Sequence record: MZ234031.1
Strand: one strand, 5' to 3'
DNA: 64,000 nt
Source: Escherichia phage vB_EcoM-CHD94UKE2
The translations under genes and the position numbers were made by a program. The notes beneath the pieces are model-generated. The model was not told the DNA's origin and did no database searches. It worked only from the letters and a program-made list of their open reading frames with translations. Positions 2,432 to 62,190 of the stretch are shown here, piece by piece (position 1 is the first letter of the stretch; each line of letters begins with the position of its first letter).

Positions 2432-3319
2432 ATGTCAGTAGTAATTAATAATGTCAATGCAGTAATTAAATCTTTAGTTAATAAAAAATTAAATGAATGG
2501 ACTGTACTTCGTCGTGGAGAGCCAGATAAATTTTTTCATAGATTTAACCCAACTTTGGATTTGAATGTTATTGACAGAGATGTTCATGCTGAAATTTTAG
2601 ATAAATTTAAAGTTGATATTGGGTTTGGGTTAGATAAACATTTGCAACGAACAAACGGATCTGGAATGGGTTTATCTAATCGCATCATGAAAGCCCTTAA
2701 TAAAATTGGAGCGTTGTCTCGTATTAATGCGAGTGAAATCCTTCGCAATTATAATAAAGGATATGACCTTTATGGTCGACTAATGCCGAAATTATCATTT
2801 GACCAAATGATTGCGGATTTGTGGGAAAATCAACGACGATTATTAGCATTAGGCGCTCGATTAGCTAAAGGTCTAGATAAACAAATGATTTTTAAGACCA
2901 ATAATACAGAAGACCTTAAATGCTTTAAATTTAGTACTCGTGGAGATGATTATTACATCAGAGCTCGCTCTACAGATTATGTTAATATGGGGCATCATCT
3001 CTGTTTAGCTTTTGAAGTTTTAAAAGAAGCCGGAACATTAGAATATGTGTCTGGTGCTAAATGTCCGATTGGTTCAAATTGCATTTTAATTTATCGCCCA
3101 GATGAATCCAGTTCAACTAAATTACCTACAAAACCTGTACCAGTTCGCAGTAATGAAAAACATTCTGAACAAATTGCTTATTTTAATAAGCAGATTGAAG
3201 AGCTAAATATTTCTATTCAGCAATATGATGATGAAATTTTCAGACTATCTGGATTGAGTAGTAAAGCTAAATCTGAGCGTGAAAAATTAATTAAAATCGT
3301 TGATTTACTTAAATCTTAA
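2432..3319 (+). CDS. hypothetical protein, paralogue A of a 4-gene array (295 aa)
   Basis: ATG 2432 after TGAGGAAAAT; C-terminal amphipathic helix; ORF-track start 2411 is TTG. Confidence 0.55.
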   Translation: MSVVINNVNAVIKSLVNKKLNEWTVLRRGEPDKFFHRFNPTLDLNVIDRDVHAEILDKFKVDIGFGLDKHLQRTNGSGMGLSNRIMKALNKIGALSRINASEILRNYNKGYDLYGRLMPKLSFDQMIADLWENQRRLLALGARLAKGLDKQMIFKTNNTEDLKCFKFSTRGDDYYIRARSTDYVNMGHHLCLAFEVLKEAGTLEYVSGAKCPIGSNCILIYRPDESSSTKLPTKPVPVRSNEKHSEQIAYFNKQIEELNISIQQYDDEIFRLSGLSSKAKSEREKLIKIVDLLKS

Positions 3320-3327
3320 GGAACACC

Positions 3328-4356
3328 ATGAAAACTCGTTCTCAAATTGAAGATATGGTTCGTAATGCCAGCTATACTCGTGATGTTATGACATTTTTGT
3401 GTGAAAATAATTTAGACCCTGATAAAGTTAATCGTGTTATTCATCACTTTAAGTATACGAATAGCAGTGAATGGGTGCGTAATTTTAGTAAAGCAGGGTA
3501 TATTACACAAATGACTGCTCGTGAACAGCTCACCGATTTCTGTAAAACTATTGATTATAAAAATCCTTTGATTGTTCAAGGCGTTGGTCAAAGTAAGGTC
3601 GATTTATCATCTGGATTTTTCAATCCAAATCATTATCGTATTGAATGGAGATTTATTGCTCTATTCCGTAAACAATTAAAGCAAATTTTGTCTACTGCTA
3701 GTCGATTAAAAGGCTCTGATATTAACTTAAAGAACCTGAAATTTGATGGTTATACTCTTCAGATGGAAGTAAGACCGTTAAAAGAAAATAATAGAACTGC
3801 ACGAATTAGCTTTAAGCCTAATACTAAAAATTCTCTTTCAATTTGTGAATGTCTTAAATCACAGCTGACAGAAGCATTTAAGTATATGGATGTTGTTGCT
3901 GCTGTTCAATCTAAGATTTTACCTCGTTTTGAGCGAAATTGGGAACATACAACAACATATGAACTTGATATGATCGTTTCATTTAAATATGAATTTTTGA
4001 GAAAGGATGAAATTGTTCAAGAGAAAAAGCAGGAAGTGCAAGATACCTTAAATTTAAATTTATCCAATTACTTATCAAACGATCCTAAATTTTGGATGTA
4101 TAGCTCAAGCAATATAGATGCATGTAAACTTAATAAAGTGAGTTTTCTTCCTACTGAAAATTCAAATTTTAAACCTGTAGAAAAATGGCACGCTGACGCG
4201 ATTGAGAAGTCTCTTAAGGCAGTAGATGATGAACTCGTTAAAGCGACCAATGAAGTGCTAGAAGCTGAAAAGGCGTTAGAACAAGCTCAGTCAAGGGTTC
4301 AAAATCTGACAAAGCAACGTTCTAAACTGAACAATGCACTAAATGCACTGAACTAG
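3328..4356 (+). CDS. hypothetical protein, paralogue B (342 aa)
   Basis: AAGGAA SD; N-terminus MKTRSQIEDM; C-terminal coiled-coil-like segment. Confidence 0.6.
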   Translation: MKTRSQIEDMVRNASYTRDVMTFLCENNLDPDKVNRVIHHFKYTNSSEWVRNFSKAGYITQMTAREQLTDFCKTIDYKNPLIVQGVGQSKVDLSSGFFNPNHYRIEWRFIALFRKQLKQILSTASRLKGSDINLKNLKFDGYTLQMEVRPLKENNRTARISFKPNTKNSLSICECLKSQLTEAFKYMDVVAAVQSKILPRFERNWEHTTTYELDMIVSFKYEFLRKDEIVQEKKQEVQDTLNLNLSNYLSNDPKFWMYSSSNIDACKLNKVSFLPTENSNFKPVEKWHADAIEKSLKAVDDELVKATNEVLEAEKALEQAQSRVQNLTKQRSKLNNALNALN

Positions 4357-9013: not shown

Positions 9014-10827
9014 CAATTGAAAAAGAAATTGAAGGATTGATTCATAAAACTAATAAAGACCTTTTAAACGAGAATGCTAATAAAGATTCTCGTGTTTTTC
9101 CAACTCAACGGGACCTTATGGCTGGTATTGTGTCTAAACACATTGCCAAAAATATGGTCCCGTCTTTTATTATGAAAGCGCATGAAAGCGGAATTATTCA
9201 TTTCCATGATATTGATTATTCCCCTGCTCTTCCATTTACTAATTGTTGTTTAGTAGATTTAAAAGGAATGCTTGAAAACGGATTTAAGCTTGGTAATGCA
9301 CAGATTGAAACTCCTAAATCAATTGGCGTTGCTACTGCAATTATGGCGCAAATTACTGCACAGGTTGCTTCTCACCAATACGGCGGAACGACTTTTGCTA
9401 ATGTAGATAAAGTACTTTCTCCTTATGTTAAACGCACCTATGCAAAACATATTGAGGATGCAGAAAAATGGCAAATCGCTGATGCGTTAAATTATGCTCA
9501 ATCTAAAACAGAAAAAGATGTATACGATGCATTCCAAGCTTATGAATATGAAGTAAATACTCTCTTTAGTTCAAACGGACAGACTCCTTTTGTAACAATT
9601 ACATTTGGTACGGGAACTGACTGGACTGAACGAATGATTCAGAAAGCAATTCTGAAAAATCGTATTAAAGGTCTCGGTCGTGATGGGATAACTCCTATTT
9701 TCCCTAAGCTTGTTATGTTCGTTGAAGAAGGCGTTAATCTTTATAAAGACGATCCGAACTATGATATTAAGCAGCTTGCTTTAGAGTGTGCAAGCAAAAG
9801 GATGTATCCTGATATTATTTCAGCTAAGAACAATAAAGCTATCACCGGCTCATCTATTCCTGTTTCTCCAATGGGTTGCCGCAGTTTCTTGAGCGCGTGG
9901 AAAGATTCAACCGGTAATGAAATTCTTGATGGACGTAATAATCTTGGTGTTGTAACACTGAATCTTCCTCGTATTGCGTTGGATTCTTATATTGGAACAC
10001 AGTTCAATGAACAGAAATTTACTGAATTGTTCAATGAGCGAATGGATTTATGTTTTGAAGCTTTGATGTGTAGAATTAGTTCCTTAAAAGGAGTTAAAGC
10101 GACTGTTGCTCCTATTCTTTACCAAGAAGGTGCATTCGGGGTTCGTCTTAAACCTGATGACGACATAATTGAGTTATTTAAAAACGGTAGAAGTTCAGTG
10201 TCTTTAGGATACATTGGTATTCATGAATTGAATATTCTTGTCGGTCGTGATATTGGACAAGAAATTTTAACTAAAATGAATGCTCGTCTTAAACAGTGGG
10301 CTGAAAGAACTGGGTTTGCTTTTAGTTTGTATTCGACTCCTGCTGAAAACCTTTGTTATCGCTTCTGTAAACTTGATACAGAAAAATATGGAAGTGTAAA
10401 AGATGTTACCGATAAAGGATGGTACACTAACAGTTTCCATGTTTCAGTAGAAGAAAATATTACTCCGTTTGAAAAGATTTCTCGCGAAGCCCCATATCAT
10501 TTCATTGCGACAGGTGGTCACATTTCTTATGTTGAACTTCCTGATATGAAAAATAACCTAAAAGGTCTTGAGGCTGTCTGGGATTATGCTGCACAACATT
10601 TAGATTATTTTGGTGTTAATATGCCAGTAGATAAGTGTTTTACATGCGGAAGTACCCATGAAATGACTCCTACTGAAAACGGATTTGTTTGTTCTATTTG
10701 TGGAGAAACTGATCCTAAAAAGATGAACACAATAAGAAGAACATGCGGCTATCTTGGAACTCCTAGCGTTGTTCCATGGAATTTAGGTAAAATGAAAGAA
10801 ATGGTAAAACGAGTAAAACATGCATAG
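9010..10827 (+). CDS. nrdD: anaerobic ribonucleoside-triphosphate reductase NrdD (uninterrupted)
   Basis: 605 aa continuous ORF, C-terminal glycyl-radical motif RRTCGYLG; no intron. Confidence 0.95.
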   Translation: MTIEKEIEGLIHKTNKDLLNENANKDSRVFPTQRDLMAGIVSKHIAKNMVPSFIMKAHESGIIHFHDIDYSPALPFTNCCLVDLKGMLENGFKLGNAQIETPKSIGVATAIMAQITAQVASHQYGGTTFANVDKVLSPYVKRTYAKHIEDAEKWQIADALNYAQSKTEKDVYDAFQAYEYEVNTLFSSNGQTPFVTITFGTGTDWTERMIQKAILKNRIKGLGRDGITPIFPKLVMFVEEGVNLYKDDPNYDIKQLALECASKRMYPDIISAKNNKAITGSSIPVSPMGCRSFLSAWKDSTGNEILDGRNNLGVVTLNLPRIALDSYIGTQFNEQKFTELFNERMDLCFEALMCRISSLKGVKATVAPILYQEGAFGVRLKPDDDIIELFKNGRSSVSLGYIGIHELNILVGRDIGQEILTKMNARLKQWAERTGFAFSLYSTPAENLCYRFCKLDTEKYGSVKDVTDKGWYTNSFHVSVEENITPFEKISREAPYHFIATGGHISYVELPDMKNNLKGLEAVWDYAAQHLDYFGVNMPVDKCFTCGSTHEMTPTENGFVCSICGETDPKKMNTIRRTCGYLGTPSVVPWNLGKMKEMVKRVKHA

Positions 10828-11650
10828 GTATTATATAATTTATAAAATAACAAATATAATTAATTCAAAGGAATATATCGGTGCGCATAGCACCGATAAC
10901 ATAAATGACGGTTATATGGGGTCAGGAACATTGATTCGTGCCGCTTTATTAAAATATGGTAGAAAAAATTTTAATAAAGAAATTTTACATGTTTTTGATA
11001 ATGAAAAACAAATGTATGATAAAGAAGCTGAACTTGTAACCGAAGAGTATTGTCTAAAAGAAAATACATATAATATTAAACCTGGTGGAAAAGGTGGAAC
11101 TGCTTATGAACAGACACTTGAACATCGCCACAAAAATAGTTTAGCAAATAAAGGTAAAAAGAAAACAGCAGAAACTAAAATAGCTATTTCACGTGCTTTA
11201 AAGAAATATAAACGTACACCAGAGCATCAAGCAAATTTAAATAAAGCTGTAAGCATAGCTATGAAGCGAAAAGATGTTAGAAGTAAATTAGTTGGAGAGC
11301 GGTCTGAGAAAGATAAATTATCTATATCAAACGGTGTTAAAAAATATTACAATTCTTTGAGCGAAGAAGAACGCGAACTTCATCGCAAGCGAATTATTGA
11401 AGGTAAAAAGAATTCTCCCATGTCATTGGAATCTAGACAAAAGCTTTCAAAAGCTTTAAAAGGACTTCAAGTTGGTTCAAAAAATCCAATGTATGGAAAA
11501 ATTTCTCCAACTAGTAAAACCGTTTCAGTTGACGGTATTAAATATGATTCAATTAAAAAGTGCTCAAATGCCATAAAAGTTTCTAGACATCTTATACTGA
11601 AACGCTGTAATTCTACTGATGAAGCTTGGAAAAATTGGATATTATTATGA
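10820..11650 (+). CDS. free-standing GIY-YIG homing endonuclease (SegH-like by position)
   Basis: 276 aa; YIIYKITN...KEYIGAHS GIY-YIG core, C-terminal NUMOD-like basic repeats; overlaps nrdD stop and nrdG start. Confidence 0.8.
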   Translation: MHRYYIIYKITNIINSKEYIGAHSTDNINDGYMGSGTLIRAALLKYGRKNFNKEILHVFDNEKQMYDKEAELVTEEYCLKENTYNIKPGGKGGTAYEQTLEHRHKNSLANKGKKKTAETKIAISRALKKYKRTPEHQANLNKAVSIAMKRKDVRSKLVGERSEKDKLSISNGVKKYYNSLSEEERELHRKRIIEGKKNSPMSLESRQKLSKALKGLQVGSKNPMYGKISPTSKTVSVDGIKYDSIKKCSNAIKVSRHLILKRCNSTDEAWKNWILL

Positions 11651-14947: not shown

Positions 14948-15025
14948 CTGATATCCTCTATGCTTTAAGATAGATCTTCAAATATTATGATATAATAGAT
15001 CTATGAATTGAGCTAAGAGGTGAAA

Positions 15026-28189: not shown

Positions 28190-28441
28190 ATGGAAACTTT
28201 AGTAGCAGGTTCAATTTTTATGGTTTTAGTATCAGGCGTGTTGGCTATTATTATATACATGCTTCCATGGTTTATCGCCTTGATGCGTGGGTCAAAATCG
28301 ACAGTAGGAATCTTTTTCACATCTTTACTGTTTAACTGGTCAATTATTGGTTGGTTTATTACATTTATTTGGTCAATTGTAGGTGAAACTAAAAAGTCTG
28401 CGCAGCCAAATCAGGTAATTATCATCAGAGAGAAGGAATGA
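28190..28441 (+). CDS. imm: superinfection immunity protein Imm (by size, topology and position)
   Basis: 83 aa, two hydrophobic segments, between 43 and 42. Confidence 0.6.
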   Translation: METLVAGSIFMVLVSGVLAIIIYMLPWFIALMRGSKSTVGIFFTSLLFNWSIIGWFITFIWSIVGETKKSAQPNQVIIIREKE

Positions 28442-28587
28442 AAAGCAAAATTATAGCAGTGTTGCTTTTAATCTTGATGGTTATAATAAGTATATACTAT
28501 AGTGTAACGGTTCCTCTTATGATTCCAACTATTATTTTAGGTTGGAGTTTATTACTGTTACAAATTAAATATGAATGCATCAATTGA
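28438..28587 (+). CDS. small membrane protein (49 aa)
   Basis: ATGA overlap with imm stop; hydrophobic. Confidence 0.35.
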   Translation: MKSKIIAVLLLILMVIISIYYSVTVPLMIPTIILGWSLLLLQIKYECIN

Positions 28588-28594
28588 GGTTTAA

Positions 28595-29335
28595 ATGATT
28601 AACGATTATATGACAGTTGAAGAAATCCGTCTTGATTTGGGTCTTGCATTAAAGGAAAAAGATTTCGTAATTGATAAAACCGGGGTTAAAACTATTGAAA
28701 TTATTGGTGCATCATTTGTAGCAGATGAACCTTTTATTTTTGGCGCTCTTAATGATGAATACATTCAGCGTGAACTTGAATGGTATAAATCTAAGAGCTT
28801 GTTCGTTAAAGATATTCCAGGTGAAACACCGAAGATTTGGCAGCAGGTAGCATCTTCTAAAGGCGAAATTAACTCGAATTATGGTTGGGCTATCTGGTCA
28901 GAAGATAACTATGCTCAGTATGATATGTGTTTAGCTGAACTTGGTCAAAATCCTGATTCTCGACGTGGTATCATGATTTATACTCGTCCATCCATGCAAT
29001 TTGACTACAATAAAGATGGTATGTCAGATTTCATGTGTACGAATACAGTACAGTACCTGATTCGTGATAAGAAAGTCAATGCAGTAGTAAGCATGCGCTC
29101 AAATGACGTGGTCTTCGGATTCCGTAATGATTATGCATGGCAAAAATACGTATTAGATAAATTAGTATCTGATTTGAATGCAGGCGATTCAACTCGTCAG
29201 TATAAAGCAGGTTCTATTATATGGAATGTTGGAAGTCTTCATGTATATTCTCGTCATTTTTACTTGGTTGATCATTGGTGGAATACTGGCGAAACTCATA
29301 TTGTGAAAAAAGATTATAACGGTGAGTGGAAATGA
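28595..29335 (+). CDS. 42: dCMP hydroxymethylase gp42
   Basis: 246 aa, matches T4 gp42 by recall. Confidence 0.9.
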   Translation: MINDYMTVEEIRLDLGLALKEKDFVIDKTGVKTIEIIGASFVADEPFIFGALNDEYIQRELEWYKSKSLFVKDIPGETPKIWQQVASSKGEINSNYGWAIWSEDNYAQYDMCLAELGQNPDSRRGIMIYTRPSMQFDYNKDGMSDFMCTNTVQYLIRDKKVNAVVSMRSNDVVFGFRNDYAWQKYVLDKLVSDLNAGDSTRQYKAGSIIWNVGSLHVYSRHFYLVDHWWNTGETHIVKKDYNGEWK

Positions 29336-30174
29336 TTCAATTCGTAATTCCAAGCTATCAACGCGTAGGGGCAGTTTCTGCCCTTGATATGTTTCCGACT
29401 GATTATGAACCACATATTGTAGTGCGTGAACACGAAGAAAAAGCTTATTATGATGCTTATGGGTCTAGAGCTAAAATTGTAACTATTCCTGATGATGTTA
29501 ATGGAATTGCCGGTACTCGTAAAGCAATTACTGATATGTATGCAGGTCAACGAATCTGGATGATTGATGATGATACTACTATTCGTATGAGTTCAATACG
29601 AAAGAGAGACGATAAACGGCGCGTAGATAAAATTAATCAATTAACTCGTGAACAGTTCTATGAATTAATTCAATACGTTGAGGATGCTATGGATTGCGGG
29701 TATTATCACGGTCATGCTCGTCTACCAATTTTTAAAATTACTTCATCTTGGGGTAATTATCGTGAAAACTCATATGGATTCACGAATACATGGTATGACC
29801 TCGGAAAACTTACGACAGAACAAATTGGGTATGGAAAAATTGATTTATGTGAAGATATGTACGCATTTCTCAATTTAATTAATCAAGGTTATCCGCATTT
29901 GGCCTTGTTCAAATATCTAGTTGTATCTGGAAAATCACACGCTCCCGGCGGGTGCAGTTCAATTCGTAGTAATTCTAAACATAATAGAGCGCTTGAACAA
30001 ATCAATAGAGAGTTTCCAGAGCAAGCTCGTTGGAAAACTTCTAATATTGAAAAACGAAAATCGTTGGGTGAAGAAGACGAGCCATTAAAGGTTCTTCGCA
30101 TGTGTGTTTCTCGTAAAGAAAAATCAGAAGCATTTCATAAGTTTAATGCTATTCATCCAATAGCAGTTGATTAA
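29332..30174 (+). CDS. glycosyltransferase with DxD motif (possibly beta-glucosyl-HMC alpha-glucosyltransferase-like), not T4 beta-gt
   Basis: 280 aa, RIWMIDDDTTI motif; occupies the slot between 42 and uvsX. Confidence 0.5.
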   Translation: MIQFVIPSYQRVGAVSALDMFPTDYEPHIVVREHEEKAYYDAYGSRAKIVTIPDDVNGIAGTRKAITDMYAGQRIWMIDDDTTIRMSSIRKRDDKRRVDKINQLTREQFYELIQYVEDAMDCGYYHGHARLPIFKITSSWGNYRENSYGFTNTWYDLGKLTTEQIGYGKIDLCEDMYAFLNLINQGYPHLALFKYLVVSGKSHAPGGCSSIRSNSKHNRALEQINREFPEQARWKTSNIEKRKSLGEEDEPLKVLRMCVSRKEKSEAFHKFNAIHPIAVD

Positions 30175-30251: not shown

Positions 30252-31433
30252 ATGTCTATTGCAGATTTAAAATCCCGTTTGATTAAAGCTTCCACTTCTA
30301 AAATGACTGCTGAGCTGACTACATCTAAATTCTTTAATGAAAAGGATGTAATTCGTACAAAAATTCCAATGCTTAATATTGCTATTTCTGGTGCGATTGA
30401 TGGTGGTATGCAGTCTGGTTTAACTATTTTCGCAGGGCCTTCTAAACACTTTAAATCAAATATGTCTTTGACTATGGTTGCGGCGTATTTGAACAAATAT
30501 CCTGACGCGGTTTGTCTATTCTATGATAGCGAATTTGGTATTACTTCAGCTTATTTGCGATCCATGGGAGTTGATCCGGAACGTGTAATTCATACACCAA
30601 TCCAGTCAGTTGAACAGCTGAAAATTGATATGGTGAATCAGCTTGAAGCTATTGAGCGTGGTGAAAAAGTTATTGTATTCATCGACTCAATTGGTAATAT
30701 GGCTTCTAAGAAAGAAACGGAAGATGCCTTGAATGAAAAATCTGTGGCAGATATGACTCGTGCTAAATCACTGAAGTCATTATTCCGTATTGTTACTCCT
30801 TATTTTAGTATTAAAAACATTCCATGTGTTGCGGTTAACCACACAATTGAAACAATTGAAATGTTTAGTAAGACCGTGATGACAGGTGGTACAGGCGTAA
30901 TGTATTCGGCTGATACTGTATTCATTATCGGTAAGCGTCAGATTAAAGATGGTTCTGATCTTCAGGGGTATCAATTTGTTCTAAATGTAGAAAAATCTCG
31001 TACCGTTAAAGAAAAAAGTAAATTCTTTATTGATGTTAAATTTGACGGTGGCATCGATCCTTATTCTGGATTGTTAGATATGGCTCTAGAATTAGGATTT
31101 GTAGTAAAACCTAAGAATGGTTGGTATGCTCGTGAATTTCTTGACGAAGAAACCGGTGAGATGATTCGCGAAGAAAAATCTTGGCGTGCAAAAGATACCA
31201 ACTGCACTACATTCTGGGGTCCTTTATTTAAGCATCAACCATTCCGAGATGCTATTAAACGTGCTTATCAGTTAGGTGCTATTGATAGTAATGAAATTGT
31301 TGAAGCTGAAGTTGATGAATTGATTAACTCAAAGGTTGAAAAATTTAAATCTCTAGAAAGTAAAAGTAAATCAGCTGCTGATTTAGAAACTGACCTCGAG
31401 CAGTTAAGTGATATGGAAGAATTTAATGAATAA
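30252..31433 (+). CDS. uvsX: recombinase UvsX (RecA-like)
   Basis: 393 aa, Walker A GPSKHFKS. Confidence 0.95.
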   Translation: MSIADLKSRLIKASTSKMTAELTTSKFFNEKDVIRTKIPMLNIAISGAIDGGMQSGLTIFAGPSKHFKSNMSLTMVAAYLNKYPDAVCLFYDSEFGITSAYLRSMGVDPERVIHTPIQSVEQLKIDMVNQLEAIERGEKVIVFIDSIGNMASKKETEDALNEKSVADMTRAKSLKSLFRIVTPYFSIKNIPCVAVNHTIETIEMFSKTVMTGGTGVMYSADTVFIIGKRQIKDGSDLQGYQFVLNVEKSRTVKEKSKFFIDVKFDGGIDPYSGLLDMALELGFVVKPKNGWYAREFLDEETGEMIREEKSWRAKDTNCTTFWGPLFKHQPFRDAIKRAYQLGAIDSNEIVEAEVDELINSKVEKFKSLESKSKSAADLETDLEQLSDMEEFNE

Positions 31434-35537: not shown

Positions 35538-36053
35538 ATGCCACATTTCAACGAATGTAGTCAACTGATCGAAGGCGCTGATAAAGCTCAAAATGAATAT
35601 TGGGATATTCTCGGTGATGAAAAAGACCCGCTGCAGGTAATGCTTGATATGCAGAAATCTTTACAGATTCGTTTAGCAAATGACCGCGAATACTGTTATC
35701 ATCCAGATAAATTAGAAACTGCCGGTGATGTTGTTTCTTGGATGCGTGAACAAAAAGACTGTATTGATGATGAATTCCGCGAACTTCTGACTTCTCTTGG
35801 TGAAATGTCACGTGGTGAAAAAGATGCATCGGCAGTTTGGAAAAAATGGAAAGCACGTTATATTGAAGCGCAAGAAAAACGCATTGATGAAATGTCCCCA
35901 GAAGATCAGCTCGAAATTAAATTTGAGCTTGTGGATATATTTCATTTCGTATTAAATATGTTTGCTGGCCTTGGAATGAATGCGGAAGAAATCTTTAAAC
36001 TTTATTATTTGAAAAATAAACATAATTTTGAACGTCAAGATAATGGGTATTAA
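35538..36053 (+). CDS. 56: dCTPase/dCTP pyrophosphatase gp56
   Basis: 171 aa, matches T4 gp56 by recall. Confidence 0.85.
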   Translation: MPHFNECSQLIEGADKAQNEYWDILGDEKDPLQVMLDMQKSLQIRLANDREYCYHPDKLETAGDVVSWMREQKDCIDDEFRELLTSLGEMSRGEKDASAVWKKWKARYIEAQEKRIDEMSPEDQLEIKFELVDIFHFVLNMFAGLGMNAEEIFKLYYLKNKHNFERQDNGY

Positions 36054-36717
36054 ACAAAAATTTTATAGAACATATATCGTAAAAGTTAGGACGCCGAAAG
36101 GCGTCTTTTGGTACGCTGGGAAACATGAATCATTTATTGTAAATCCATATGATGATAAATATCCGGGGTCAGGCAAAATACTATGGAACATATATCGTAA
36201 GTATGGTTTTAATTATAAAATACGTTGGTCAAAATGCCATGGTTCTAGAGAAAAATCATATGAAGTTGAACGCGAGCTAATATCTGCATTAAAACGTAAA
36301 CACCCAGATACTTGCATTAATATTTCTCCTGGTGGTCAGGGTGGAGAAGGAAGAAAATGGACTGAGCAACAACGATTAGAACATAAACTTAGATTAAACA
36401 ATCCTGAAACAAAAACTCGGATGAAGAATTCACAACGTATAGCCCAAAATAGAGCAGAACGAAAAGCTCGGCAATCTGAAGTAATGAAAAAGTTTTATTC
36501 GAATGGCGGAAATAAAAAGATTTCAGAAGGAACTTCAAGGGCGCAAAGAAAAGCGCCGCATTGGCATGAACCGCTTAAAAGCGAAATACATGAGTTATGG
36601 GTTTCTTTAGGTAAACCAGCAACAGGCCCGGTTGTAAAGGCGCTTAAAGGAAAATATGATGTAACAAGTTCAGCTCTTAAGAATTTAATTTACTTATTCA
36701 GAAAAGAAGATGTATAA
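36043..36717 (+). CDS. degenerate GIY-YIG endonuclease-like protein (SegF-like by position and size)
   Basis: 224 aa from ATG 36043; YPGSGKILWNIYRKYG resembles YMGSGTLIRAALLKYG of the 10820 GIY-YIG protein. Confidence 0.55.
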   Translation: MGIKQKFYRTYIVKVRTPKGVFWYAGKHESFIVNPYDDKYPGSGKILWNIYRKYGFNYKIRWSKCHGSREKSYEVERELISALKRKHPDTCINISPGGQGGEGRKWTEQQRLEHKLRLNNPETKTRMKNSQRIAQNRAERKARQSEVMKKFYSNGGNKKISEGTSRAQRKAPHWHEPLKSEIHELWVSLGKPATGPVVKALKGKYDVTSSALKNLIYLFRKEDV

Positions 36718-61407: not shown

Positions 61408-62190
61408 TTATACTCTTGGACCATATATTGCTCCAACATTTTGCCATGTTGGAGCGGACCCTATGACAGCATAACCAGCAGCGCCGCCATTATATTCAGA
61501 TCCTTGACCGCGAATATTGCATCTACCTCCCGCGGAACCTACTTCACCACCGTTTCCACCATTATAGATACCATTCACGGATCCTGAGCCAGGTGCAGAA
61601 ATAGTACCGCCAGTCGCGCCTGATTGCATATCAATAGATCCTCCTGGCGCACCAAAAGGACGACCGCCACCACCACCAAAGGTCAATCTCATTTGTGAAA
61701 AAGGAGAATAATATCCGCCGCCGCCACCGCCGCCACCGCCTGCAATAGCTCCGCCATTATTAATTCTTAGTCTCCCACCAATATCGTTTTGAATACAATG
61801 ACCTCCAGCTGAGCCAGGACTATTGCTACCGCCATTACCTCCACGACCATACATCGTTACGCCATGTATATTTAACTGAACATATTCATTTGGTGTATCT
61901 CCGTACATGAAGAATAAAGGAACATCTTTAGAATAAGAAACGATATCACCAACAATATTGAATACAATAGGTGCACCGCCAGCTTCAAAGCATCTATCAC
62001 GGAACCACTGACCATTAAAATTGTGGTTTGCTCCTACAGTATGAATAATTTCTCGTGAGCGACCTGCAAATTGACTCATCCAGCAAGGAACACCCAATCT
62101 TAATTGACCAGCCGCTTGACTCATCCAGCGCTGTCCTGTTTCATTTGCGGCTGAACTTCCAATCCAACCAGGAACACCAACTACTGCCAT
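61408..62190 (-). CDS. 38: tail-fibre adhesin gp38 (T2-type, glycine-rich motifs)
   Basis: 260 aa with poly-Gly blocks ([26 protein letters not shown]) separated by variable segments. Confidence 0.75.

Follow-up and report, generated by a model that had tools for sequence, protein, structure and literature searches.

The stretch analysed (64,000 nucleotides of Escherichia phage vB_EcoM-CHD94UKE2, record MZ234031.1, hereafter the window) carries, between gene 42 and uvsX, a gene whose product raises two questions: which DNA glycosyltransferase occupies this slot, and which sugar would it place on the phage DNA? An earlier note, made from the sequence alone, had described a 280-residue enzyme with a GT-A-like DxD motif, distinct from the T4 beta-glucosyltransferase, and had read it together with an intact alpha-gt as the sign of a T2/T6-like glucosylation pattern.

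The gene and its neighbourhood

The open reading frame was called mechanically from a GTG codon at 29326 to 30174 on the + strand, which corresponds to a product of 282 residues. The ATG at 29332 yields a product of 280 residues and is also the annotated start in phages vB_EcoM-G3F7 (G3F7), vB_Eco_Geo (Geo) and T2 and in other records; this start was adopted in Table 1. The protein was thus present where the earlier note had placed it, with both neighbours assigned by Pfam. The peptide RIWMIDDDTTI, which had been quoted as the motif, was located at residues 74–84, and the alpha-gt gene, described as intact, was recovered as an open reading frame matching the AGT family over the full profile. 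The alpha-gt product additionally matched PHROG 2888 (E 6.8e-223) and was 92% identical to the alpha-gt of Geo.

Table 1. Genes of the glucosylation pathway and boundaries of the slot (positions in the window).
Gene	Product	Position	Strand	Evidence and remarks
a-gt (alpha-gt)	DNA alpha-glucosyltransferase, 400 aa	16520..17722	+	Pfam AGT PF11440, E 1.8e-237, full profile
gene 42 homologue	dCMP hydroxymethylase, 246 aa	28595..29335	+	Pfam Thymidylat_synt, E 1.1e-15; T4 gene 42 position
ba-gt (also g-gt, TAGT)	280 aa	29332..30174	+	GT-A fold (predicted model); DDD motif at residues 79–81
uvsX	recombinase	30252..31433	+	Pfam T4_UVSX_C, E 4.7e-39, and RecA; downstream boundary of the slot

The start codon of ba-gt shares bases with the stop codon of the gene 42 homologue (sequence ATGA, four-base overlap), and this overlap suggests that the two genes are co-transcribed and translationally coupled. 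Around ba-gt, 11 sigma-70-like promoter matches were found, compared with 10.5 expected from shuffled sequences, and the terminator search returned a single hairpin (29366–29386) at chance level inside the open reading frame. An independent transcription unit was therefore rejected, since both promoter- and terminator-like matches stood at the level of shuffled sequence.

Downstream, ba-gt is separated from uvsX by a gap of just 77 bp without segA, whereas in T4 this homing endonuclease gene sits between b-gt and uvsX. When T4 SegA was compared with the window by tblastn, a match was obtained at 10826–11164 (50% identity, E 9e-27), within an open reading frame of 276 residues (10820–11650, +), and a weaker one at 36055–36345 (E 8e-5), within an open reading frame of 229 residues (36028–36717, +). 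Both look like homing-endonuclease-like genes sited elsewhere than T4 segA. Upstream of gene 42, a hydrophobic open reading frame of 49 residues (28438–28587, +) is flanked by an imm-like gene and by gene 42; in G3F7 and Geo its sole annotation is hypothetical protein, and T4, T2 and T6 have about 150 bp of intergenic sequence at the same place.

Assignment of the slot enzyme

The product of ba-gt was matched over residues 1–275 by PHROG 842 (beta-glucosyl-HMC-alpha-glucosyltransferase, E 4e-88) and reached 39.1 bits against Pfam PF20691 (TAGT, TET-associated glycosyltransferase), for which the gathering cut-off is 27.5. The alignment with the T2 and T6 enzymes, which had been proposed as a check, gave identities of 97% and 96%, respectively, over all 280 residues. 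These enzymes share the length, the slot and the DDD motif with that of the window, and an alpha-gt is likewise present in both genomes. In the records compared, the slot holds a gene of 843 bp in T2 and one of 840 bp in T6, and the order 42/ba-gt/uvsX is common to T2, T6, G3F7 and Geo. Relative to the T2 enzyme about seven residues differ (R11H, V50I, I89M, K95R, R97C, I101V, S202A/H203Q, P251S), and no functional difference is indicated by these substitutions.

In the T6 gene of 840 bp (AP018814/NC_054907, positions 3135–3974 of the retrieved segment) the motif is shorter by one Asp (RIWMI-DDTTI). Since another T6 record (MH550421) carries a gene of 843 bp at the same place, the missing residue reflects either a variant phage stock or an error of assembly and is not a hallmark of T6; as an explanation for the different gentiobiosylation of T2 and T6 it was accordingly dropped.

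The T4 beta-glucosyltransferase (Pfam PF09198, as cited in PMC13216743) occupies the same slot downstream of gene 42 and also glucosylates hmC DNA from UDP-glucose, but it differs from the enzyme of the window in length (351 versus 280 residues), in acceptor (bare hmC, as opposed to alpha-glucosyl-hmC for ba-gt) and in fold (GT-B, as cited in PMC13216743, versus GT-A). When the two proteins were compared by BLASTP, the best alignment covered 35 residues with an E value of 4.1, in agreement with the view that the slot does not hold a T4-type gene. By sequence comparison, homology of the ba-gt product was found neither to T4 beta-gt nor to the alpha-gt of the window itself. A beta-gt hidden elsewhere was also considered and rejected: tblastn with the T4 protein (E≤1) gave no match in the window and none in the remaining approximately 104 kb of the G3F7 genome, searched in three pieces that cover all but a junction of 54 nt, which by its coordinates lies inside the G3F7 tail-fibre gene (record positions 62144–65092).

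The search of solved structures by sequence returned no relative of ba-gt at E≤1, and the fold was therefore tested on a predicted model (AF2). With a mean pLDDT of 68.9, and values below 50 at residues 126–151 and 194–211, the model is of moderate quality; it consists of a single Rossmann-like alpha/beta/alpha domain resembling solved GT-A enzymes. In GT-A enzymes the DxD motif is expected where a core strand ends; in the model D79-D80-D81 follows directly after the predicted strand 74–77, and in the alignment all 10 homologues, the most distant at 31% identity, retain it unchanged. The motif would presumably confer metal dependence and act in catalysis. The cellular GT-A enzymes of the GT2 family (Staphylococcus aureus TarP, 6h1j; cellulose, chondroitin and hyaluronan synthases) are only 7–16% identical in sequence; they act on polysaccharide or teichoic acid acceptors, whereas the acceptor of the enzyme of the window would be a sugar on DNA, and this enzyme has no membrane domain.

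The match to the enzymes of T2 and T6, the intact alpha-gt and the searches for a T4-type beta-gt, which found none, uphold the T2/T6-like type proposed by the earlier note: the gene is assigned, with a probability of about 95%, as a T2/T6-type beta-glucosyl-HMC-alpha-glucosyltransferase (ba-gt, g-gt, TAGT PF20691) that acts as the second DNA glucosyltransferase. None of the results spoke against this assignment.

Expected product and alternative readings

Gene identity, fold class, motif, presence of alpha-gt and absence of beta-gt were computed here; for product and proportions, the source is published experimental work on phages whose gene is identical or nearly so. According to the proposed pathway, hm-dCMP would be made by the gene 42 product and 5-hydroxymethylcytosine would be introduced into the phage DNA by replication. 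The alpha-gt would then attach glucose to hmC in alpha linkage and so provide the substrate of ba-gt, which would add a second glucose from UDP-glucose in beta-1,6 linkage to form gentiobiosyl-hmC, a divalent metal presumably being held by its DDD motif. By analogy, the DNA of the phage is expected to contain bare hmC, alpha-glucosyl-hmC and gentiobiosyl-hmC side by side, but no beta-glucosyl-hmC. In the DNA of Geo and vB_Eco_BGP (BGP), 5-hmdC, alpha-glucosyl and alpha-gentiobiosyl deoxycytidine were determined by HPLC/MS at roughly 1:2:2, that is, with about 40% gentiobiosyl cytosine, and the beta-glucosylated form was not detected (PMC13390438). The ba-gt deletion mutant of T6 is described as having alpha-glucosyl-hmC only (PMC11078745; bioRxiv 10.64898/2026.02.25.707755).

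The extent to which ba-gt acts could nevertheless be small. The protein is slightly nearer to that of T2 (97%) than to that of T6 (96%), and the gentiobiosyl shares of these two phages, as quoted in PMC13390438, PMC11078745 and bioRxiv 10.64898/2026.02.25.707755, are 5% and 72%, a difference of about 14-fold in literature values for nearly identical ba-gt proteins. An intact enzyme that contributes little, as in T2 with about 5% of hmC gentiobiosylated, would leave the DNA essentially alpha-monoglucosylated. This is unlikely, however, since an identical gene is present in Geo and BGP, whose gentiobiosyl level lies between those of T2 and T6 and is not negligible. It is still less probable that the substitutions relative to T2 and T6 (e.g., K95, R97, S202–H203), in combination with the divergent alpha-gt, give a ratio unlike that of any characterised phage; the sequence gives no pointer to an unusual ratio, and phages with an identical ba-gt have already been measured. 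If it were true, it could help to explain the difference in gentiobiosylation between T2 and T6. The ratio of mono- to diglucosylated cytosine in the present phage cannot be predicted from sequence, because the alpha-gt shares no more than 92% identity with the Geo protein and because T2 and T6 differ so widely.

A different sugar or linkage, comparable to the arabinosyl systems of RB69-like Mosigvirus phages, would yield a product other than gentiobiose. Arabinosylating relatives of T4 are known (PMC13390438), and members of the TAGT family are also known from phages that modify their DNA by a different chemistry, as well as alone without alpha- or beta-gt (PMC13216743). Such a product is nevertheless highly improbable in view of the near-identity to the T2 and T6 enzymes, the presence of both alpha-gt and gene 42 in the window, and the complete identity to the protein of Geo and BGP, in whose DNA gentiobiosyl-hmC was directly detected.

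Occurrence and relevance to phage defence

In a megablast search with ba-gt, 478 phage records were matched, 474 of which cover at least 80% of the query; they belong mostly to Tequatroviruses of Escherichia, Shigella, Yersinia and Salmonella, and the RefSeq gene name in the matches is beta-glucosyl-HMC-alpha-glucosyltransferase. The T4 beta-gt gene in the same search matched 29 records, mostly T4 and close relatives. A non-T4 gene is therefore the normal state of the slot: ba-gt is its usual occupant in T4-like coliphages, and the finding is correct but ordinary. Positions 15000–39000 of the window are 100% identical to Escherichia phages vB_EcoM-G3F7 and G3F10, and the genes of Geo and BGP are 100% identical to ba-gt of the window (Geo protein, 280/280). 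Gene, slot, fold, product and relevance to defence systems have all been published already, and no new biology is involved. In the records KM607002 (RB55) and KM607003 (RB59), a T4-type b-gt that is 100% identical to that of T4 is labelled "beta-glucosyl-HMC-alpha-glucosyl-transferase", a database misannotation that could mislead surveys based on names.

The pattern of hmC glucosylation decides the fate of T-even phages against glucose-specific defences, among which the excision of alpha-glucosyl-hmC by Brig1, the BapA/Brig3 pair and type IV restriction of the GmrSD/BrxU type have been published. Gentiobiosyl-hmC is resistant to Brig1 and BapA in vitro, and the loss of ba-gt is described as raising the sensitivity of T6 to the Brig1 glycosylase and as turning its DNA into a substrate of the BapA glucosidase (PMC11078745; bioRxiv 10.64898/2026.02.25.707755). 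It is therefore useful to know that the present phage has both alpha-gt and ba-gt, for annotation as well as for the prediction of host range and of sensitivity to defence systems.
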